The position numbers and the translations under genes are program-made. Positions 14,020 to 48,816 of a stretch of DNA of 64,000 bases are shown one piece after another; the stretch's first letter is position 1, and every line of letters starts with the position of its first letter. Below the pieces are notes generated by a model. It searched no databases and was not told the DNA's origin. It was given only the letters and a program-made list of their open reading frames with translations. The stretch lies in the IMG/VR virus record IMGVR_UViG_3300026549_000036; one strand, written 5' to 3'. This DNA comes from a virus. Its lineage: Duplodnaviria; Caudoviricetes.

Positions 14020-14815
14020 ATGATTAAACCAGATGTACATATAGAACTTTGGAACGCATTTAATGATATTAGTTTTAATGAACCAGACCACAAATATACA
14101 GATTCTAAAGGAACTTTGTATCAGTCCGCTACCGGTTGGATAAAACAATTTGAAGCAGATACCGATTGGGAAGAAATTAAGAAAAATAAAGCACAAAAAC
14201 TTGGTATTCCCGTAGAACAATTATCTAAAGAGTGGGAACGCAAAGGTGATTATGCAACTCATCTTCGGTACTCAAGTTCACGCAGTAATGGAATATGGGT
14301 GGCAGAAAAAGAACTATAATTTTGACAAGCGATTGAACAAAGATTTTCCTGAAATGGAAGAAGATTTCAACTACCGCAAAGGTGTATGTAAAGACATTAT
14401 GAATAAGATGAAAAAGATTTATGTACCTATTGCGAATGAATTTATTGTGTATGACCAGGAAAATGCTATATGTGGCACAATAGATGCAATAATGTATAAC
14501 ACTAAAAAAGATGTATTTAGTATCATTGACTGGAAAACATCAAAAAAATTTGACACCGGGAATCAATGGTCTGAATATATGAAAGACCCATTCAATCATG
14601 TTATTAACTGTAATACTTCACATTATTCTCTTCAGTTGTCATTGTACAAATACATTTTGGAAAAATATACTTCAATAAAAATTGGTGAACTTGTTTTATT
14701 TCAAATTCCTGGTAAAGAAAATCCAATGCCTCAAGTATTTCGCTGTTTAGATTTTAGTTCTCAAATTGCTAAATACTTTAATGATAAGAAAAAAGAGAAA
14801 GGACAGATAGGTTAA
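14020..14815 (+). CDS. PD-(D/E)XK (Cas4/RecB-like) exonuclease, +1 frameshift at CGG 14266
   Basis: Join gives GDYATHL-GTQVH...GTID...IIDWKT..QLSLY, about 264 aa. Confidence 0.85.
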
Positions 14816-14918
14816 TAATCTCACCTATTTGGGATAGTGTTTCCACCACTATCCCTAACTTTTATAAATATATTAGTCTATGTGGAAATGGACTATAAAC
14901 TATAAAGGAGATTATATG
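14798..14918 (+). promoter_or_regulatory. Structured RNA leader (3 hairpins, kissing loop, anti-SD) with TATAAATA late promoter at 14863
   Basis: Same architecture with covarying stems at 39329-39442. Confidence 0.75.
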
Positions 14919-15833
14919 TTTCATTGTGAAATTTGTCATAATGATTTTGTGAACATTCAATCATTTGCTCAGCATTTTAAGAAACACCATAATATAACAT
15001 ACGAACAGTATTTTGATGATTATATAGAACCAAATACTGACCATATTTGCCCGATATGTAAATTACACAAAAGAAAATTCTTTAAAGGTAAATATAGACA
15101 AACTTGTGGAAATCCAAATTGTCGTGCTAAGTGTATAACAAAAACTTGTATAGAACAAAATGGTGTTAATAATAATTTTTTGGTTAAAAATGAATGTGGT
15201 AAATGTAAAAGAGATATAACTAATAAAAAGAATACTGGTTATGAACATCCATTTCAAAACCCAAAAATACAAAATAAAGTAAAGAAATACAATAATGAAA
15301 AATATGGAACTGATTATCCATTAGAATCAAAAAAATATTGGGAAGAAAATAAATTATCAAATCCAATGCATAATCCTGATATAGTCAAAAAACTTATAGA
15401 AACAAGAAGAAAAAATGGGAATATAAGTAATAGTAAACGAATTTATTATAAAAATGAAAAATTTGATAGTAAATGGGAATTGGCATATTATATTTGGTTA
15501 GAAGATCATAACATTAAATTTACAAGAGAACCTTTATCTTTTGAATATAGTTATGACGATAAAATACATTATTATGTACCAGATTTTAAAATTGAAGATA
15601 AAATAATAGAAATTAAAGGTCTGCAATTTTTTGAAAATAATGACCCAACTAAAAGAATGATAAATCCCTATGACAGAACACAAGACGATTTATATGAAGC
15701 AAAACATCAATGTATGCTCAAAAATGAGGTAGAAATAATAACAGATTGTACTGAATATATAAATTATGTAGAAACTGTATATGGTAAAAATTATCTAGAC
15801 CAATTCATTAAAAGAAAAAGATTGAAAAAATAA
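14916..15833 (+). CDS. Free-standing homing-endonuclease-like protein (C2H2 Zn finger plus TnsA-like PD-(D/E)XK domain)
   Basis: CEIC..H..H; DSKWE; YVPDF..IEIKG; very AT-rich. Confidence 0.75.
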   Translation: MFHCEICHNDFVNIQSFAQHFKKHHNITYEQYFDDYIEPNTDHICPICKLHKRKFFKGKYRQTCGNPNCRAKCITKTCIEQNGVNNNFLVKNECGKCKRDITNKKNTGYEHPFQNPKIQNKVKKYNNEKYGTDYPLESKKYWEENKLSNPMHNPDIVKKLIETRRKNGNISNSKRIYYKNEKFDSKWELAYYIWLEDHNIKFTREPLSFEYSYDDKIHYYVPDFKIEDKIIEIKGLQFFENNDPTKRMINPYDRTQDDLYEAKHQCMLKNEVEIITDCTEYINYVETVYGKNYLDQFIKRKRLKK

Positions 15834-15856
15834 AGTACAATTTAAAATAATTATAA

Positions 15857-15896
15857 ATGGCGGTGTATTGACATCGCCATTTTCTTTTTGTATATT
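15857..15896 (+). promoter_or_regulatory. Hairpin-embedded sigma70-type promoter
   Basis: ATGGCGGTGT/ACATCGCCAT stem; TTGACA-N17-TATATT. Confidence 0.7.
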
Positions 15897-34000: not shown

Positions 34001-37000
34001 TGAATCCCGAAAAATATACAGGTCCGACACTGATTTATCAACCAGTTGATGACACAAATGTTTATATTAGTCCTAGAGTTCATATTATGAAAAAACCACA
34101 CTTCTTTGCTGGTGTTCATAAAATATATGCTTATGAAGGAGTTAAAGACCCTAAATCAGAAACATATTCAATGAAAGAAAAATACCCAAAATATGATTTG
34201 AGTGATGATGAACAAATTAAAAAGGCACTGGTTGATTTACAGAAACAATGGAAAAGCGAACTGAATAAAATCAGAGAAGAAGAAATAAAAGGAGACTTTT
34301 ATGACGCTTAAAGAACTTGAAGAATTTTGTAATGGATTGGGATTTGATGGAAAAATTGGGCAATGCTGTGGCATTGATGGTGCTTTGTATTGCGATTTGG
34401 GTTATGAGTATGACGGCCCAACTGTAATATATTCTCCGCCTGGTGAAGAATATGTTTATATCGCAGAAGTTTTGACAATGAAAAAGAGTAAAAATAAGCA
34501 TTACACTTATGAATATGATAGCATTGAAGGTGGAACTGAATTTGAAGATGATATGACTATTATCTATCCTCAATACAAATTAAAAGATACTGAAGCAGTT
34601 CAAAAAGCAATTTATGCTTTGAAACACGAATGGAAAGAATGTTTAACAAAAATACGAATAAGGAAAGCAAAAAGTGACTTTCGCTGAGTTTAAAAGAATT
34701 TTAAAGAAATATAATTTAGCAAATAAAGATGCTTCGGATAAGGAAATTGAGTATGTTTATAGAACATGGTCAGTTAAGACTTTTTGCACAGACATAAATT
34801 CTAAACATTTAACCTTCATTAGAGATAATGATTTACATTTGTATTCTATGACACAGGACGAATTTATAGAACTGTTGAATATGAATATGGAACTGCTTAA
34901 GTACTATAAATGCGAACAAAAAATTATAAAGATGAATGAAGATTTTATATGAGTAGTACAGTTAAAATTGAACCAAACATATTAGCTTATCTAAAAGCGA
35001 ACTGTCGCTTTGTGTCAGCATTTGGTGAAACTTATTATTGGAAAAGATTTAACTATTTTAATTTGTTTTTGTATCCGGAAAAATTGGATATAGCCAGTCA
35101 CGAAAGGGGTCTGGACGGAAAACCACTTGACTTAGGAGAAATGGAATTACTTTGTAAATATAAGTTTTGGTATCAACTTAATTATGATGAATTCCTGAAA
35201 ATGATTAGCGAAGTAGAACTTTTTGATAAAGAACTAAGTTTAGTTGAAAAATATAAATCCATTGAGAAGGATTTTTAGTATTGTTTTTTGACAGGATTTT
35301 TCTAAATTAGAAATATGTATATAAACTTTCCACAAAAATCTTTTCCAATGTATTTCAAGCGTTTCCTTGATACTGGTAAGCATTATGCCATTTTCTTTAA
35401 AGATGTTGTTCAGGACACTTATGCTATCAGTATGAAACCAGAACCAGTTAATAATTATTGTGGATTGCCGGTTTTGAAAGTCATTGACCTGAATACTTTG
35501 GATAAATTGGAACCCGAATTTGTGTGGAAAGTTTTTGAACAAACTTTGAAAGAACTTGATGTTGCGGAGGATTTCTAAATGCTCATTGGACTTATTAAAT
35601 ACAAATTAGCCAAACGCAAAGTCATTAAAAATATGGAATTCTATGTAGATGTTGAAGATACTTATCTGACAAACATTTTTAATCACTACTTAGATTATTT
35701 TGAATACATTAAAGATATGGTTATGAAGCGTTATGAGTTAATGGTCGGTTATGGAAAAGAAGATTACTTTATTGACGATAGCAGATGGTATATTGAAGAA
35801 CTGAATAAAACCAAAAGAGAAATTGAAGAAGTTTTCAAGAAAGAACGATTTAATGTTCAGCTCATAAAGGCTATGAATAATAAAGGTCTTTTTACAGATT
35901 ACAGAAAAGGCCAGGCTGAAAGCATTATTGAAAACTTTTACAAAGCCAAAGAGATTTACGAAACTCGTTACCAAACATTCAGTCCTGAATTGTTGGTAAA
36001 AGAATACAAAATCAAACAGAAACTAAAAAGATTACAAGGAGACTTCTAATGTACGAAGAATACGAATTTTCAGACCAGTTTATGCGTAATATGACACATG
36101 AAATTGAACGATATGTAGAAGCAAGTCGTAATCATATTAAAGGCCTTGAAGGTAAAGTTGATTTTTTGGAAGACCAAATAATTACTTTGGAAAAGCAACA
36201 CGAACAATTACAACTGTTGGTTGAAATGATTAAAAGAGAAAATGAAGCTCTCAAAGCCTATATTAAATCTGGCGAGAAGATTCTCAAACTTGAAAAGGAT
36301 TTTGCTGATGACACGAATGGAAGCATTTGAGAAACTAGCAAAAAATAACGGACTTGATATTGAAATAATTGATAATGTTCATAGAGCTTGGTTCAATGAT
36401 AAAGATTTCGTGATGAGCATAAACACAAGAAAAGAATTCCAAGCTTTAGAAGTTGCGTCAAAAGTATTGGGTAGAAAGTTTATGTTGTTCAAACAATATA
36501 CGGACATTGGACCGAGAATTTATACGAAATTAGACAAACAAATTAAACAACTAATCGGCGATTTTAAAGTAGCCCAGGTAGAAGAAAGACTGGAGATTAT
36601 GGGAAATGACTTTAAATGATTTTATGGAACTCTGTGAGAAAAACCATTTACAACCTGAAGAATACAGTAAAAATTGGTATATTGCTAACATAAAATCAAA
36701 GTTTATAAAAGCAACTTGGATAATTTGTTATTGTACTACTGATGAGAAAACTGTATTACCGAATGACATTAGTACTGATGGTAAAACAATTACTTATAAT
36801 GGAAATGTTTTATACAATGAAACTGATTTCAACTGTAAACTTAAAGTTGTTAGAGAATTGGTTAGACTCTGTAAACAAAGAGAAGTTGAAAATAAACTGG
36901 AAGATTTGAAAAATGACTTTTGATAACGATGATATGGTTAGAATTTGTGATAAAATCACAGACAAGTGTGGTGTGCCTTGGGTTGAGCAGGTTCTTCGCA

Positions 37001-37886
37001 TAACAGATGAAAATTATATGCCGTTGATTAACTGGGGCAAGTCACCTTGTAGAGGACGCGGTCTTTCGTATGGATTTTATAACAATGCTTCAAATAAAAA
37101 TAAAGCTGAGTGGATTCATAATAAAACTTATAATGTTGTTTTTAACTTCGCTTTTAATACTCTGGTTGATTTAGACATTGACAAAGACGGAATTTACTAT
37201 TACGAAAATCTTGAAGTTGATATAAACAACGAATGGAAAAATAATAAAGATTATTGGGATGGAACTGCTTGTATAGTTGGTGAATATACCTTCAAGCCAT
37301 TTTCGTTTTTCAAAACAGAAGACCAACTGGTTGCGTTCGCAGCAGCAAAGTACAAATCTTTGAATAATAAATATATGGCTCTGCTTAACGAATTAAATGA
37401 TAAGACAGCTAAAACTTGGAAGAGTCTAATCATCAAAAAGAAGCAGAAAAAGGCGAAAGCCAAAATCAGAGAACTACAGGAAGATTTTGAATGATTACAA
37501 GAGAAGAAGTAATAGAAGTTTGTAATAAATTGGGATTGGTGGAATACACCGCTCCTGAATTAGACGAGTATAGACCTTGGAGATTTTCAAATAGCATTTT
37601 TAAAACTCCAACTTCATCCACGATTGTAGTTCTATCAAAAAATCCACACGATAAAGTAACTGGAAATAGACTGTATTTTTACGATAAAATAAAATACTTA
37701 AAAGATGATGGATTTAGGATGTGTTGTGAAGATGAAGTTTTGGCTTATTGTTCAAAAGATGGTAAAAAATATGCTGAAATGTATGATAAGGAATCTTTTG
37801 AAACTGCCGTTAAAAATGTAATCAAGAAAATAAAAACAACTGAAATGAATTTTAAACTAGAAAATATACAGAAAGATTTTAAATAA
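31013..37886 (+). other. Array of 19 consecutive DF-tail ORFs (starts 31013, 31333, 31659, 31945, 32325, 32783, 33348, 33629, 33910, 34301, 34674, 34949, 35315, 35579, 36049, 36308, 36606, 36913, 37491)
   Basis: Each ends in, or just after, a K-rich helix plus (L/I/M/A/V)xxDF; mostly stop/start coupled. Confidence 0.8.
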
Positions 37887-37902
37887 TAAATAGAATACAA
37901 TT

Positions 37903-38190
37903 ATGATTGAAACAGTTTATTGGTTATTCGGCATTATTGGTGCCGGAGCATTTGCTATAAATTTATTTCCGCAACTTATTAAATGTTATAAAGAAAAATC
38001 TGCTAAACAAATTTCAGTAGGATTTATTATCCTAGCCTTTGTTGGAAATTTGTGTTCAGCAGTTTTTGTGTTTTATACGAATTATAAAACTGGTTTATGG
38101 CAAATCCCTATCTATTTCAATTATGGAATTGCAACTTTATTAACAATTATTTTGACAATTATGAAGGTTAAGTATGACAAAGATAAATAG
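37903..38190 (+). CDS. PQ-loop / SemiSWEET-like membrane protein
   Basis: FPQLIK...KSAKQIS; three TM helices. Confidence 0.8.
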   Translation: MIETVYWLFGIIGAGAFAINLFPQLIKCYKEKSAKQISVGFIILAFVGNLCSAVFVFYTNYKTGLWQIPIYFNYGIATLLTIILTIMKVKYDKDK

Positions 38191-39329
38191 ATTTCTTAAC
38201 ATTTTAATTCCACGGAATCTTCTTGCCAACCTGTCTTGGCACAGTTTATAACTATTCTCAATATGCTAAAAACATAATGGAATGGTTTGATATAAGTAAA
38301 TTCTCAACTGACATTGGTTTTACTTTAATCATTTTCTTCCTGGGTATGGGTGCTGCCACTTTTGGTAGAATGGTAGAACTTAACCCTAAACGAATGGCTT
38401 GTATCAGTACCATATTGTTCTTTATTGGTATGATACTTGTTTTCTGTTCGCTCCAATTCCACTTGTTACCACTGTATTATGTTGGGTGTTCCTTTATGGG
38501 ATGTGGTACTGGTATTGGTTATGTTTCACCTATTAAGCAGTTGCTCAGTAATTTCGCAGATCATAAAGGTTTAGCATCTGGTTTGGCTATTACTGGTTTT
38601 GGATTGGGTAAGTTCGTAGCTGCTCCAGCCATTGAGTATTTGCTTACGGCTGTATCTCTACCTACTATGTTCCTTGTCCTTGCTGTGGCATTCCTGCTCA
38701 TTATGAGTGTATGTTCGTGGTTGTTTAAACCAAATCCAGCGTTCATTTCTACGGTCTATACTGCTATCCCTATTAGCACTCTAGTTAAGTACACATTCCT
38801 AACAAAGCAATATATTTCTGTATGGTTAATGTTCTGTATTAACATATCCTGTGGGTTGGCAATTATTTCGCAGGAGAAAGGATTGCTTACAGGACTTGGT
38901 TTTAAAGAAATCGCAACAATTATGAGTTTGACTGCCGTATTCAACATTCTCGGTAGATTTGGTATGAGTACTGTGAGCGATAAAATCGGAAGAAAGTGTA
39001 CTTACCATTATATTTGTAGTATAGGTATTATTGGTGCTTTCTTATGTTATACACAATTTGCTTGGCCCGCATTATTTGGTATTTTACTCATTGAATTTGC
39101 TTATGGTGGCAATTTTTCTACTTTGCCAAGTTTATTATCTAAATACTTTGGAGAAAATTGTGTTTCAACTGTACATGCTATGACTTTATCTGGATGGGGT
39201 ATTGCAGGAATAATAGGTCCTGTATTAGCAAATATATTTACTGGTACAAATCTATATTTAGTTTTAGCTGGTCTATATTTTATTGGTTTTTTTGGTATGA
39301 CTATATGTTTAAAATCAAAAGAAACATAA
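38174..39329 (+). CDS. MFS transporter (OFA-like), +1 frameshift at CGG 38213
   Basis: Join MTKINRFLNILIP-GIFLPTCLGTVY restores TM1; KGLASGLAITGFG, SDKIGR. Confidence 0.85.
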
Positions 39330-39442
39330 AAGGACAGGTGCTTCCTCCGTGGCACTTGGTGGATGTTACAGCATCCACCTAACTTTTATAAATATATTGT
39401 AGACTGTAATCTACATTAACATTTTTAACGGAGAATAATATG
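39329..39442 (+). promoter_or_regulatory. Second copy of the structured leader, TATAAATA at 39387
   Basis: Covarying stems relative to the 14798 copy. Confidence 0.75.
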
Positions 39443-40549
39443 AATGGCACAATAATATGTAAAATTTGTGGTCAGCCCTTTAAAACATATTGGGCTTTAA
39501 GTAAACATATAACAGATAAACACAATATATCAAAACAAGAATATTACGATAAATATTTTAAAAAACCTGGTGAAGGACTTTGTTATATATGTGGTAATAC
39601 AACAAAATTTTTAGGCAAAATTAATTATGGATATAATAAATTTTGTTGTAAAGAATGTTATAAACTTTATATGTCAAAAACAAATAGTAGTGAAACGTAT
39701 AAACAAAAAGTAAGAAAAACATTAAAAGAAAAATATGGTGAAGATGTAGAAAATGCTTTTCAATTAAAAATTGTTAAAGAAAAAATTGAAAATACATGTT
39801 TACAAAAATTTGGTGTAAAATATGCAACTCAATCTGATAAAATGAAAGAAAATAGTAAAAAAACTAAACTAGAAAAATATAATAATGAAAATTATACAAA
39901 TCGTGAAAAAGCATTAAAAACTTGTGAAGAAAAATATGGAAACAAATATTGGAATAATAGTGAACAAAATAAAATAACTTGTTTTGAAAAATATGGTGAA
40001 ACAAATCCAATGAAAGTTCAAGAAATAAAAGAAAATTTCTTTAAAAAATATAAAGAAAAAACAGGATATGATACACCATTTAATAATCCTAAAGTTATAG
40101 AAAAACGAAAAGAAAATTATTATAATAAAACAGGATATTATTATAATTCACAAAATCCAGAAGTTCATAAAAAACAAATGTGTTGTCGTTATACAGCACC
40201 TAATGGTAAAAATTATGATAGTAGCTGGGAATATAAATTTGAACAATATTTAATTGAAAGTAAGATACAATATGAATATCAACCAAATATAACTTTTAAA
40301 TGGATTGATTTCGAAGGTATTGAAAGAACTTATCTACCAGATTTTAAATTAATATATCCAGATGGTAAAGTAGAAATTGTTGAAATAAAAGGAGACCAAT
40401 TTTTTGATAAAGAAAATAATTATATAGATCCGCACGATAAAACTGAAATAGGACTATTTAATGCCAAACAAAAATATAATTGTATGATTGATAATGGTAT
40501 TAAAATACTTAGAAGAACAGATCTTAAATTATTAGGAATAAAATTATAA
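39440..40549 (+). CDS. Free-standing homing-endonuclease-like protein
   Basis: CKIC..H..H, KYG repeats, DSSWE, YLPDF..VEIKG; paralog of 14916. Confidence 0.75.
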   Translation: MNGTIICKICGQPFKTYWALSKHITDKHNISKQEYYDKYFKKPGEGLCYICGNTTKFLGKINYGYNKFCCKECYKLYMSKTNSSETYKQKVRKTLKEKYGEDVENAFQLKIVKEKIENTCLQKFGVKYATQSDKMKENSKKTKLEKYNNENYTNREKALKTCEEKYGNKYWNNSEQNKITCFEKYGETNPMKVQEIKENFFKKYKEKTGYDTPFNNPKVIEKRKENYYNKTGYYYNSQNPEVHKKQMCCRYTAPNGKNYDSSWEYKFEQYLIESKIQYEYQPNITFKWIDFEGIERTYLPDFKLIYPDGKVEIVEIKGDQFFDKENNYIDPHDKTEIGLFNAKQKYNCMIDNGIKILRRTDLKLLGIKL

Positions 40550-40632
40550 GTTTGGTTTAAAACCATTTCATTCTATGTGGGTATTAACAAACTCAATACC
40601 CATTTTTATATTATAACTAAGGAGATTAAACT

Positions 40633-40860
40633 ATGAATAATTATCTTATTGTAACTACTAAAGATTCAACTGGAACTTTCATTGACTACATCAAATTGAA
40701 GTATGTAGAAAGTTTCTCTATTTCAGGTGATGGTGAACGAATTGTTGTTACTATGCGAAGTGGCAGACAACATTTCATTAGCAATAAGTTCTCTACTTGC
40801 GAACAAAATAGCCAGAATGTTCCTTGGGAAGAACTTCCACGTATCATTTGTAATGGGTAA
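40633..40860 (+). CDS. Hypothetical protein
   Basis: AGGAG SD. Confidence 0.6.
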   Translation: MNNYLIVTTKDSTGTFIDYIKLKYVESFSISGDGERIVVTMRSGRQHFISNKFSTCEQNSQNVPWEELPRIICNG

Positions 40861-40863
40861 ACT

Positions 40864-42036
40864 ATGCTTATAAACCAGCAAATCACAGACGAATTAAAAA
40901 GTCATATTTGGGCGCTTGATTGGCAAAATTGTTGCGATGAAAAGACCAAATATACAACAGACGCAACATATCGTGAACAAATTAAAAATGATTGGTTCAC
41001 AAAACTAGAAGCAGAAATTGATGATTATAAAGACAAAGTAATTAGTCAATTTACTTCCAATGGATTTTTAGTAGATTACAATGACCAGTGTTATTCTAGT
41101 CTAAGGGCGAACATTTGCCGATTGACATATAAACTACGATTCTCAAAGAACGAAAAAACAAATCCTTTTGAGGCGGACATTAAAATTTGTGTTAATCTTG
41201 AAGATGAAGGTGTTTCTTATAACTGGTATATTGACAACCCAGTCCGAATTTATTACAAGAAATACTTGAATTGGGGTAACAGAAATGCCTGTAATCACAT
41301 GCTGTTCACAAGACGAGGATTTGCCCGTAGATATGGTTACAGTAGTTATCGCTGGGTAGGCACGATTGACGAATGGGCAGAAGGCACAAAGGCCAAAGAC
41401 ATTTGTAAGAAACTAAAGAAAACTATTACTGATATGGAATGTGAACACGAAAAATTACAGAAAGGTGTTCAGCAGAAAAAGAAAGAACTCCATATTCAGG
41501 AAGATGATGTTTTCGGAATGTTGACTGATTTGAATACAGAATTTAAAAATGCGAATGTTAAGTTCTTATTCAATGGCGAATGTAATTTTGATTATGTTGA
41601 TTCACCAATACGCTTCAATATAGTTTGTTCTAACAACCCAAGTCAAGATGACGAAAACTTGTATGTAAAAGAAGGTGTAGACATCGCATTTGAAGATGGT
41701 CCTTGGCCTGATGGAACAGCGGAAGAACGTGCTCAGTGGCAAAAGACACTTGAAAGCCATAAAATGAGATTGTTCTCAGATAACATAAATCCACAAACAG
41801 GTTATTACAGAAACCATATTACTATTTCATTGGTTTACAGACCAGATGTTCCTACTCATTGGCACTGTGAAATTTCCCATCCAATTTCTAACAAAATAAT
41901 TAAAAATATGCTTGGTTGTGAAACCTATTATGATTGTGGAACATTGGATGAAATAAAAGAACAATTAACTACTATATTCAGACGAGATAATAGTCTGTAT
42001 AATACTATTGAGGAATGGAAAAATGGCCTTAATTGA
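40864..42036 (+). CDS. Hypothetical protein, 390 aa
   Basis: Long ORF; internal DF-tail-like segment KKELHIQEDDVF. Confidence 0.7.
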   Translation: MLINQQITDELKSHIWALDWQNCCDEKTKYTTDATYREQIKNDWFTKLEAEIDDYKDKVISQFTSNGFLVDYNDQCYSSLRANICRLTYKLRFSKNEKTNPFEADIKICVNLEDEGVSYNWYIDNPVRIYYKKYLNWGNRNACNHMLFTRRGFARRYGYSSYRWVGTIDEWAEGTKAKDICKKLKKTITDMECEHEKLQKGVQQKKKELHIQEDDVFGMLTDLNTEFKNANVKFLFNGECNFDYVDSPIRFNIVCSNNPSQDDENLYVKEGVDIAFEDGPWPDGTAEERAQWQKTLESHKMRLFSDNINPQTGYYRNHITISLVYRPDVPTHWHCEISHPISNKIIKNMLGCETYYDCGTLDEIKEQLTTIFRRDNSLYNTIEEWKNGLN

Positions 42037-42523
42037 GATACCACAAGAAAAGTTAGATGAGATTAAAAAAGACCGAAAGTACAGTTTTATAACTCCACAA
42101 CAGGTTAGAAATCGTATTCAGGTCTGGGCAAGTAAACTCGGATGTAATCGCTGTCCAAAGGATATGCACGAAATTTCACAAAACTATCTTTTCTGTGTAA
42201 CTTTAAATGGGGCTGAATATGAATCCTTTGTTGGAACTAATGGTAATGTTCCACAAACAACATCTTACTGGAATTTTAACATTACTGTAATCAGACGAGA
42301 AGATATGCGTGAAGAAAGGCGAAAAGATTATATAATCTATGACAGACATTATCACGCACATCTGTTCTTTGAAATTCCAGTAATTGATTCTTTCTCAGAC
42401 GAGAAAATAGAAAAATGGGAAGATTTCTGTTTGAGATTTTTAGCCAAACAGGTTTTCATTAACAAAAAGAAAGCTAAAAATTGGCTGAAAATGAAAAAAT
42501 TAAATTCCGATTTTGAAGATTAA
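42023..42523 (+). CDS. DF-tail family hypothetical protein
   Basis: Ends MKKLNSDFED. Confidence 0.7.
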   Translation: MALIEIPQEKLDEIKKDRKYSFITPQQVRNRIQVWASKLGCNRCPKDMHEISQNYLFCVTLNGAEYESFVGTNGNVPQTTSYWNFNITVIRREDMREERRKDYIIYDRHYHAHLFFEIPVIDSFSDEKIEKWEDFCLRFLAKQVFINKKKAKNWLKMKKLNSDFED

Positions 42524-42552
42524 AAAAGGACGATTAAAAATCGTCCTTTTCT
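42523..42552. terminator. Bidirectional terminator
   Basis: AAAAAGGACGA/TCGTCCTTTT between convergent genes. Confidence 0.8.
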
Positions 42553-43098
42553 TTATTCACCCAAAGCCATCGCTTTTTCGGCTGGATATTGGTAATCAGG
42601 TGCTTTCTTCAACCAAGATAACAGTTGACGAAGAACAGTGATTAACTGATATGCATTCCATTTGACTGTCCCTATATCTTCAGTGAAAATACGAGCTGGG
42701 TCATAACCGTCCACACCGTAAGTATATAATTGTTCCATTGGTGTTAAGTGGTAGAAGTGGAACTTGTTATTTGTCAAATCAGATATAGTTCTCTCAATTT
42801 CTTTTTTCGCATTTACTTTATCGTGACAAAGTTCTCGCTTGATAATCTGTAAAATCGGACACCAAGTTGTTTTGTTCTTGTCATTTTCAAAATGAGCATA
42901 AGTATCCATCATTTCGTCAATTTCAATAAATCGGTTCATATTCAAAACGAGCCATAATCTTAACAACTGCGGAATGAGTCTTACGTTCTCACCTCTCCCA
43001 AATTCGTCAAGTTGTTCAGGTGTGAACTTTGTTTTAAAATGCGACATTCTTTTATTATACAGTTCTAATCGTTCTGCGTAGGTTTTCTTTTGTTTCAT
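42553..43098 (-). CDS. Hypothetical protein, the only credible minus-strand gene
   Basis: GGAG SD; no overlapping + strand gene. Confidence 0.8.
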   Translation of the reverse strand: MKQKKTYAERLELYNKRMSHFKTKFTPEQLDEFGRGENVRLIPQLLRLWLVLNMNRFIEIDEMMDTYAHFENDKNKTTWCPILQIIKRELCHDKVNAKKEIERTISDLTNNKFHFYHLTPMEQLYTYGVDGYDPARIFTEDIGTVKWNAYQLITVLRQLLSWLKKAPDYQYPAEKAMALGE

Positions 43099-43220
43099 AT
43101 TTTTTCTCCATTAAAATATCAGCTAGATTTTGTCTAACTGGCGTGAATTATTGAAGTTCTAGTTGAAACAAAAGTGTAAATTAACTATTGCGAACTAGAA
43201 CATTTTTTGCTATATTAAAT

Positions 43221-43604
43221 ATGTATAAACTTAGAGATTTAAATACTATGGGCTACAAAGAAATTATAAAGTATCTTGACGATTTTCCATTCCTTCACAA
43301 GCAAGAATATAGTGAAGGTTCAGTTGCGTATGAAATCGTAACTAAAACTATGTATCCTGAAGACGATGATTTACCGACAGAAAACACAGCTAGAGCAATT
43401 ACCATTGACCGATATGGACTTACTTGTCGCAGACTTATGGTTATGAATGGTCTGATTTATGCTAGAGAAGAACTTGAAGTAAATAATCTTACAGAACTGA
43501 AAAATTATTTGGTTGAAGTTGAAGAAGAAATTAAACGATATAGTAAACTGTATAAACAGGCTATGGTTGATTATAAACTAAACAAAATGAAGGAAGATTT
43601 TTAA
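43221..43604 (+). CDS. DF-tail family hypothetical protein
   Basis: Ends KLNKMKEDF. Confidence 0.7.
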   Translation: MYKLRDLNTMGYKEIIKYLDDFPFLHKQEYSEGSVAYEIVTKTMYPEDDDLPTENTARAITIDRYGLTCRRLMVMNGLIYAREELEVNNLTELKNYLVEVEEEIKRYSKLYKQAMVDYKLNKMKEDF

Positions 43605-44077
43605 TGATTTATATTGACTTTTTCATAAAAGAATCACAAGAAAGACATTTTTATAAGTTTGAAGGCGATAGTTTTGAGATTACAGAACTTCATATCGGCA
43701 GAAACAATTATGAATGGACTGGTAGTGAACGAAACGAAACTCACACAATTCCAATAAGGTTTACAATGAAAACTAATCTTGGTGAAATCCATAGTTTTGA
43801 AATTGACTGTTGTTATACAGAAGGAACAGATTGGAATCATAAAAAATACAGAAATTACAAAATGACCCATTTTTGTATATTGGACGAAAAAGATGGTTTG
43901 TATGTTGTAGCTGACGAATATGACGAAGAAAGTCACGAATGGAAAACAGACTATGAGTTCCAAAATAAAATTGCAGAATACTTTAATAGTAAAATCCAAA
44001 ACGATACAGATTTAATTAAAAAACGATATAAAGAAATAAAGAAATTGGATAAAATGCATTCAGATTTTGCAGATTAG
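43604..44077 (+). CDS. DF-tail family hypothetical protein
   Basis: Ends KLDKMHSDFAD. Confidence 0.7.
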   Translation: MIYIDFFIKESQERHFYKFEGDSFEITELHIGRNNYEWTGSERNETHTIPIRFTMKTNLGEIHSFEIDCCYTEGTDWNHKKYRNYKMTHFCILDEKDGLYVVADEYDEESHEWKTDYEFQNKIAEYFNSKIQNDTDLIKKRYKEIKKLDKMHSDFAD

Positions 44078-44122: not shown

Positions 44123-44520
44123 GATACTGACATTAGTGAAAAGTCCCGTTCCTCGGAGCGAACAGCAACTCAATGTGAGTATCGGTAGAGGGCGGGCCAT
44201 TCTATAAATCCAAGGTTGTTTATAGATTAAGAGAATCGTTCTTATGAAACCGAATGATGAGCGAGTAGCGACCGCTCAATATGCCGTCATGCGTTTTATT
44301 GAATAAAGCCCAGGTACAGGATGACCGCCTGGTAAGTCAATTTGTAAAATCGCCTGCAAACCGACGAGCGACAGTCAAAACAAAAATGATTGTCAAACAG
44401 AAGTTCGTGCTTGTCTAAAATAGGCAAGCACCCTCCGAAGCTCCATATCAAACAAAAATTAAATCATCAATAAAATAATTGTTTCCGAAGGAAACAACGA
44501 AATTTCAAAGAAATTTCGTT
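44123..44520 (+). ncRNA. Unidentified highly structured non-coding element (ncRNA or replication origin)
   Basis: ORF-free, GC-elevated, about 10 hairpins, TATATT just upstream; strand inferred. Confidence 0.55.
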
Positions 44521-48728: not shown

Positions 48729-48750
48729 ATTTTATTCATTACTGCTCCTT

Positions 48751-48790
48751 CTAGGGTCCCCTTCTTGGGGACCCTAGTTTTTTATAAATA
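48751..48790 (+). terminator. Terminator running into a TATAAATA late promoter
   Basis: CTAGGGTCCC/GGGACCCTAG, T-run, TATAAATA at 48783. Confidence 0.8.
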
Positions 48791-48816
48791 CATTATAGAA
48801 TTTAATGAGGTTTTTA

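Follow-up and report, generated by a model that had tools for sequence, protein, structure and literature searches.

A window of 64,000 nt, the whole stretch of DNA analysed here, comes from an uncultured T4-like rumen phage and carries a folded RNA leader of approximately 115 bases with three hairpins (39329-39442), which precedes an endonuclease gene. A second leader of the same layout, referred to as copy 1, is found upstream. On sequence grounds, the phage is T4-like. It encodes a gp44-type clamp loader with a Gp44_lid domain, for which the best tblastn matches are T4-like cyanophages and a pelagiphage, all 2545 records being below 60% identity; T4-like phages are found in the organism tally and in every one of the matches listed. 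The features of the two loci are the following.

14759..15843 (+): cassette 1, consisting of a leader (14799-14918) and an ORF (14916-15833); absent from G001
14804..14915 (+): leader copy 1 (leader 14799-14918), with the same order of elements in other letters
39305..40545 (+): cassette 2, consisting of a leader and an endonuclease ORF; absent from the close relative L117
39326..39332 (+): 5' strand of helix P0, ATAAAAG, with its partner CTTTTAT at 39383-39389 in the MFE fold
39330..39337 (+): conserved word AAGGACAG, covering the P0-P1 junction and the first 3 nt of P1
39335..39358 (+): hairpin P1, containing the anti-RBS loop L1
39359..39378 (+): hairpin P2, containing the predicted kissing loop L2
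39379..39394 (+): CTAACTT, one base, and TATAAATA (39387-39394), the box of a putative T4-late-type promoter
39398..39415 (+): hairpin P3, with its loop L3 complementary to L2
39428..39433 (+): ACGGAG, the Shine-Dalgarno region targeted by L1 and situated 7 nt ahead of the ATG (39440)
39440..40549 (+): endonuclease ORF of 369 aa, with an N-terminal C2H2-like zinc finger and DUF7487

In copy 2, P1 is formed by CAGGTGCT (39335-39342) and GGCACTTG (39351-39358), which make eight pairs, two of them G.U, and its loop L1, TCCTCCGT (39343-39350), is complementary to the Shine-Dalgarno sequence ACGGAG. P2 joins GTGGATG (39359-39365) to CATCCAC (39372-39378) and exposes L2, TTACAG (39366-39371). P3, made of TGTAGA (39398-39403) and TCTACA (39410-39415), exposes L3, CTGTAA (39404-39409), and is separated from ACGGAG by an A/U-rich stretch. 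The TAA stop codon of the upstream MFS gene (39327-39329) falls inside the 5' strand of P0. Both loop complementarities, that of L1 with ACGGAG at 39428 and that of TTACAG with CTGTAA on the TGTAGA/TCTACA stem, had been proposed in an initial sequence-only reading and are correct in letters and coordinates.

Copy 1 repeats this order. Its P1 (14804-14831) carries L1 TAATAATCTC, the target of which, GAGATTAT (14908-14915), lies just before the ATG at 14916; P2 (14832-14854) carries L2 TTTCCAC, the box occupies 14863-14870, and L3 is GTGGAAA (14882-14888). RNAfold predicts the described hairpins in copies 1 and 2, with z about -3.5 for each, and a loose terminator scan classes P2 and the following TAACTTTTAT (in RNA, UAACUUUU) as terminator-like in both. 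The flanks had been described as common to the two copies, and they are: the 21-mer CCTAACTTTTATAAATATATT occurs twice exactly in the window, at 14854 and 39378 (0.05 expected), and AAAGGACAG is also shared. The flank between stems 2 and 3 is conserved as described, with the refinement that it holds the putative T4-late-type TATAAATA promoter. In a third copy, found in the nearest virus record, G001, the stems differ again, and L1 AACAGCTC faces GAGCTGT in its own RBS.

The leader and its mobile cassette

Both cassettes have empty counterparts in close relatives. G001 has 42 nt in place of 14759-15843, and the flanks of copy 1 are 94-95% identical there. L117 has 24 nt in place of cassette 2, with the sequences corresponding to window 36000-39304 and 40546-44000 contiguous and 90-96% identical to the window flanks (blastn), and of 15 relatives with the upstream MFS gene, none has the leader. 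Because these sites are empty in close relatives, the leader belongs inside the mobile cassette. Comparison with relatives that lack the insertion, which had been suggested as a means of defining the ends of the element, does define them, through G001 for cassette 1 and L117 for cassette 2. The leader and the ORF, with nothing else, make up one free-standing mobile cassette of 1.1-1.2 kb.

The insertion point lies a few codons ahead of the stop codon of the host gene. The 5' end of the cassette supplies this gene with a new tail and stop, while the end of the nuclease ORF roughly coincides with the old stop. Cassette 1 sits between a PD-(D/E)XK gene and the terminator hairpin of that gene (15855-15882), which is now found 3' of the nuclease gene.

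With cassette 1 inserted, the reading frame of the PD-(D/E)XK host gene (window 14246-14815) takes in 13 codons of the leader and is closed by TAA TAA in loop 1. At the empty sites (L117 5083-5106 and G001 C1:15631-15672), an AAGGAC-like word stands exactly at the junction. These words, AAGAAGGAC in L117 and AAAGAAATAACAG in G001, resemble the 5' end of the leader and could reflect microhomology-guided insertion or a target preference.

The 369-aa protein matches Pfam DUF7487 (E=1.9e-22) as well as PHROG 3339 and 12131, both annotated "homing endonuclease", and a weak match to T7 endonuclease I is among the family assignments of the DUF7487 nuclease. By family assignment, the ORFs of the cassettes are predicted homing endonucleases. 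Behind distinct leaders, 27 ORFs were recovered. One BLAST cluster of zinc-finger proteins comprises 22 of them, with DUF7487 in nine of the ten scanned against Pfam; the other five are HNH-like, as judged by eye from an HH motif in their N-termini, with NUMOD3 in two of three scanned and no match to Pfam HNH in the three HNH-like proteins scanned. L105, a distant DUF7487 homologue and the one homologue examined in this respect, has no leader. The leader had been said to travel with its endonuclease family. The mobility stands, the empty sites placing the leader inside the cassette, but the restriction to one family does not, given at least two unrelated nuclease families and a DUF7487 homologue without a leader. 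Since two unrelated nuclease families carry the leader and L105 does not, it is apparently a portable regulatory module and not a trait of one protein family.

Several ORFs of this set depart from the common layout. Leader-headed ORFs of 590-595 aa in L026 (8372-10156) and L038 (665-2434, minus strand) combine DUF7487 with a C-terminal half resembling N6/N4 DNA methylases; their matches to Pfam N6_N4_Mtase (E about 5e-5) do not reach the gathering score. Behind the G001 leader, the third copy (L007 1606-2560), the nuclease ORF falls into two frames, one of 60 aa and one of 239 aa, and is either decaying or needs recoding. Relatives of the copy 2 nuclease, at 37-40% identity over half its length, are found in several copies in Prevotella Lak megaphages and also in Dickeya phages.

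Covariation of the helices and the loops

In two pattern scans for GGACAG, a gap, CTAACTT, one to three bases and TATAAATA, 45 instances were obtained in which the 5' part forms the two adjacent hairpins on folding; 34 of these instances are distinct. The matches come mostly from cow-rumen samples, together with some gut and fermenter phage contigs. Conservation of TATAAATA, GGACAG and CTAACTT is partly ascertained because all three were in the search pattern; the AA before GGACAG lies outside the pattern and is more than 90% conserved. A covariance model built from the 5' domain of the leader, R1, finds only the two known copies in the window and one copy in G001. It also finds a few variants without the exact pattern (CTTACTT for CTAACTT) and a diverged sister class, described below. 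The box is present in all five model-found variants that depart from the exact pattern, at a varying distance from P2.

In a plain MAFFT alignment of the 34 distinct leaders, the P1 and P2 positions are paired in 96.4% of cells, compared with 63.6% in shuffles, and double changes fill 194 cells, compared with 54. The covariation score is 0.86 against 0.22 for shuffled alignments, none of 500 reaching it, and falls to 0.08-0.17 when the partners are slid. Covariation is seen at five of seven pairs in P1 and at eight of nine in P2. P3 is found in 30 of 31 relatives with 24 distinct stem sequences; it begins 3-5 nt after the box and shows the complement of L2 within a 6-7-nt loop. P0 (AAGN with N'CTT) is weakly supported, its pair 4 being formed in 30 of the 34 leaders where 19 are expected. 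Beyond the four inner pairs, P0 shows no covariation in these leaders, and the 7-bp P0 of copy 2 was accordingly rejected as a feature of the family.

At the base of P1, 33 of 34 leaders retain a G.U pair, which shows that the folded molecule is the sense-strand RNA, and neither DNA nor the opposite strand. An RNA from the opposite strand was rejected, as this G.U and other U.G pairs would be A.C mismatches on it; the minus strand of the window also has no TATAAATA.

Around the three-helix core, the junction nucleotides (GA-CAG, UUG and CUAAC) are invariant, partly because of the search pattern. Such an invariant three-way junction could belong to a ribozyme or to a site for a phage RNase, at which the nuclease mRNA would be parted from the host mRNA. 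We consider self-cleavage or processing of this kind extremely unlikely: the leaders match no Rfam ribozyme or other family even at E<=10, and the contribution of the search pattern to the invariance weakens the argument from the junction.

For the loops, each leader was compared with its own downstream region and with those of all other leaders. The longest Watson-Crick match of loop 1 has a mean of 6.9 nt for cognate and 4.6 nt for non-cognate regions, and that of loop 2 means of 6.6 and 4.0 nt (permutation p<5e-5 for each). Duplex energies differ likewise, with -8.0 versus -3.4 kcal/mol for loop 1 and the RBS and -7.2 versus -2.8 kcal/mol for loops 2 and 3. In all 30 relatives with an assigned start, the complement of loop 1 lies within -13..+1 of the ATG. 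The ribosome site is found 70-90 nt downstream of loop 1, and the loop-to-strand pairing spans P2, the box and P3. The loop pairs are thus copy-specific, as had been proposed, each loop matching its own partner better than those of others. The proposal of a selected RNA structure is likewise borne out in the alignment of more homologues, where covariation is statistically supported. Compensatory change is strong throughout, in the three helices as well as the two loop pairings, and the structure must therefore be under selection.

The same loop results weigh heavily on a reading in which the element would be only a terminator-promoter insulator and recombination handle, similar to PeSL cassettes, with functionless loop complementarities. 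P2 would terminate the host gene, the box would restart transcription, and the conserved words would provide homology for cassette shuffling. A hairpin followed by TATAAATA is indeed the usual intergenic layout of this phage, and R1 scores the junction at window 48729-48794 weakly; the same leader heads two unrelated nuclease families, and an AAGGAC-like word is found at the junction of both empty sites. As the sole explanation, however, an insulator is disfavoured by the cognate complementarities and duplex energies. It cannot explain how loop 1 and the RBS, and loops 2 and 3, remain complementary through about 20-25 different sequences, and it leaves P1 unaccounted for. We regard it as very unlikely.

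Copy-specific loops may also be read as acting in trans. Upstream transcripts could end at P2, as the loose terminator scan allows in both copies, and release an RNA whose 3' end carries loops 1 and 2. Loop 2 would first kiss loop 3 of the late nuclease mRNA, and loop 1 would then settle on its ribosome site; a loop-loop kiss also starts the known antisense interactions of CopA/CopT and RNAI/RNAII. In each genome examined (window, L037, L078 and G003), no two copies have the same loops, and such differences would prevent cross-talk among the cassettes of one genome. The conserved UAAC, however, parts the U-run from the stem of P2, whereas the clear terminators of the phage have a T-run directly on the stem. 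Pairing in cis is kinetically favoured because the partners share a strand and only about 40-90 nt separate them. Orthogonality of the loops is without statistical support, since about 20 loop types make distinct loops per genome expected by chance. A trans-acting antisense RNA of this kind is thus quite unlikely. Its broader form, an address-coded riboregulator in which a P0/P1/P2 scaffold bears two re-writable loops and the released 5' domain silences only its own nuclease mRNA in trans, is also unlikely. If it were true, many selfish nucleases could share one 400-kb phage without cross-talk.

A diverged sister class is found in L133 1500-1640 (from G002, a complete 424-kb relative), L134 1500-1640 (G004) and L041 9792-9950. 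Here the partners are swapped. Loop 1 (CCCC or CGCC) has its complement in the P3 loop (GGGG or GGCG); loop 2, in turn, faces the region of the ribosome site or start codon, with a match of 8 nt over the start codon in L041 and, by eye, only 4-5 nt in G002 and G004. With each loop assigned to the target of the other, this class suggests a design that can be rewired.

Two further leaders lack matching partners. L040 893-1010, identical in L088, has the 5' domain and box of the L026/L103 cassette and is followed by a terminator-like hairpin, with no P3, matching ribosome site or ORF. This orphan resembles the remnant of a cassette that has lost its nuclease gene. A second leader without matching partners is found in L042 (G003).

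The late-type box and translation of the nuclease

In every copy, the box is placed between loops 1 and 2 on one side and P3 and the RBS on the other. Its word, TATAAATA, is the late-promoter word of T4-like phages. The evidence for it is one of position and not of count, as TATAAATA is not over-represented in the window (8 found, 8.7 expected). In G001, 10 of 18 boxes on the gene strand lie outside long ORFs, in about 16% of the sequence; seven of these ten intergenic boxes stand 7-33 nt before the next long ORF, and several directly follow terminator hairpins. Seven genes behind TATAAATA boxes in G001 have no PHROG family match that would mark them as late or structural. The box between stems 2 and 3 of the leader is probably a T4-late-type promoter.

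Two other places in the window, 48750-48805 and 59650-59719 (boxes at 48783 and 59686), show a terminator hairpin or T-run followed by TATAAATA, a ribosome site and an ATG, and these boxes are likely late promoters. Behind them lie an ORF of 584 aa and one of more than 1427 aa with cadherin repeats; in PHROG and Pfam, these large ORFs yield cadherin-like repeats only.

A homing endonuclease must not damage the genome in which it resides. The leader probably serves as a two-loop clamp that masks the RBS on read-through RNA and leaves RNA from its own late promoter open, following the logic of I-TevI. Because the cassette is inserted at the 3' end of a phage gene, transcripts of that gene would run straight into the leader. 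A co-directional ORF has its stop within -28..+12 nt of GGACAG in 32 of the 34 leaders, and host-gene transcription is therefore expected to run into the leader. In the read-through RNA, the 5' domain would fold into a short closing helix, P0, and the hairpins P1 and P2. Loop 2 would kiss the P3 loop over 6-8 bp, and loop 1 would pair with the Shine-Dalgarno sequence and spacer of the nuclease gene over 6-10 bp, the two contacts together hiding the ribosome-binding site. If the TATAAATA box between the two halves acts as a T4-late-type promoter, its RNA would begin at about the foot of P3. The ribosome site would be open on this RNA because P1 and P2 are missing from it, and the nuclease would be made only from its own late transcripts. 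The analysis shows the structure and its covariation, where the cassettes end, where the box lies and how accessible the ribosome site is by computation; promoter activity, late timing and repression are what we infer for this clamp.

A thermodynamic model limited to nested pairs gives the Shine-Dalgarno sequence a computed probability of being unpaired of 0.22 in the full leader and of 0.63 in an RNA that starts after the box. With a foreign 5' domain grafted on, the computed value is 0.50, compared with 0.22 for the cognate domain (p=4e-7). In the full leader, the partner of the Shine-Dalgarno sequence is the region of hairpin 1, with a probability of 0.55. As modelled, the most likely effect of the leader is to silence translation of read-through transcripts. 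With short duplexes of about -8 kcal/mol, translation may be damped rather than blocked, and efficient termination at P2 and UAACUUUU would leave few read-through RNAs that extend to the ribosome site. The clamp model does not account for the conserved words at the junctions (AAGGACAG, UUG and CUAAC).

The position of the upstream stop codons also suits translational coupling, in which ribosomes terminating on the host gene, with its stop in or beside P0/P1, would open the clamp. Translation of the nuclease would then be tied to that of the host gene and remain far below it, and the TATAAATA box would have no essential part. The stops in 32 of 34 leaders agree with this, as does the host ORF ending inside loop 1 in copy 1 and inside P0 in copy 2. 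Stops 20-28 nt upstream are nevertheless too distant for a terminating ribosome to melt P1. Coupling also leaves unexplained the fixed place of the box in every copy, diverged ones included, and the start of P3 3-5 nt after it, and is in our view decidedly improbable.

Relation to known RNA elements

Kissing-loop antisense control is known from CopA/CopT of plasmid R1 and RNAI/RNAII of ColE1, where the two RNAs are transcribed from opposite strands and act in trans. The leader resembles these systems in its fully complementary loops of 6-8 nt and in the subsequent pairing, which blocks a ribosome site or a folding step. It differs in that its partners share one strand, the conserved G.U indicating that the sense strand folds.

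For I-TevI, I-TevII, I-TevIII, segB and Aeh1 mobE, the parts of PMC2988022 that deal with these genes describe a read-through mRNA that is masked and an own-promoter mRNA that is open, and refer to T4-like late promoters of the TATAAATA kind. These T-even leaders mask the RBS and contain a late or middle promoter. As with them, a selfish nuclease gene is embedded in a host transcription unit of a T4-like phage, RNA from upstream pairs with the Shine-Dalgarno sequence (here as computed), and TATAAATA stands between the masking strand and the ribosome site, where it would let short late transcripts escape the mask. The T4 mask, in that account, is one local hairpin containing the ribosome site, whereas the leader is predicted to act as a two-point, pseudoknot-type clamp on a P0/P1/P2 scaffold; a single local hairpin holding the ribosome site is not what is found here, the site lying 70-90 nt downstream of loop 1. 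The leader also differs from the masks described there in being a portable family of conserved sequence, found in dozens of phages and with two families of nuclease, each copy having its own loop "addresses". The best reading is that the logic of the I-TevI type is known and that the two-point loop clamp would be new.

PeSL cassettes of T4-like phages, which, in the abstracts of PMC2839356 and PMC4122927, join a terminator with an early promoter, also resemble the leader: both are short conserved modules of a stem-loop and a promoter (putative in the leader) that border variable genes, are repeated within a genome and may serve as exchange points. The leader differs from PeSLs as described there in that its box is of the late type, it has three hairpins, and two long-range pairings covary in it, and neither the name PeSL nor these abstracts mention pairing with the ribosome site of the downstream gene. 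Membership of the PeSL group was rejected, as no sigma-70-like site above background is found in or beside the leader and the box is of the late type.

The leader region has no blastn match among deposited phages, and no description of it was found in the literature on homing endonucleases, free-standing homing endonucleases or DUF7487. These uncultured T4-like phages would have turned T4 logic into a portable RNA module with a conserved scaffold and two re-writable loops. The leader offers a clean natural example of covarying tertiary contacts, both loop-loop and loop-strand, and may provide a ready-made design for orthogonal translational switches.

It is also a candidate for a new Rfam RNA family. 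Across the 4227 families of Rfam release 15, the leader is unmatched at gathering scores in the window and four related loci, and at E<=10 both leaders of the window have no match, the best sub-threshold scores being 16-21 bits against cut-offs of 39-90. The same window contains a full-length cow-rumen-2 RNA (RF02947) at 44252-44357 (+), which scores 78.3 bits where 66 is the gathering score (E=6e-13). RF02947 is an orphan metagenomic RNA motif, which here lies in the genome of a T4-like phage.
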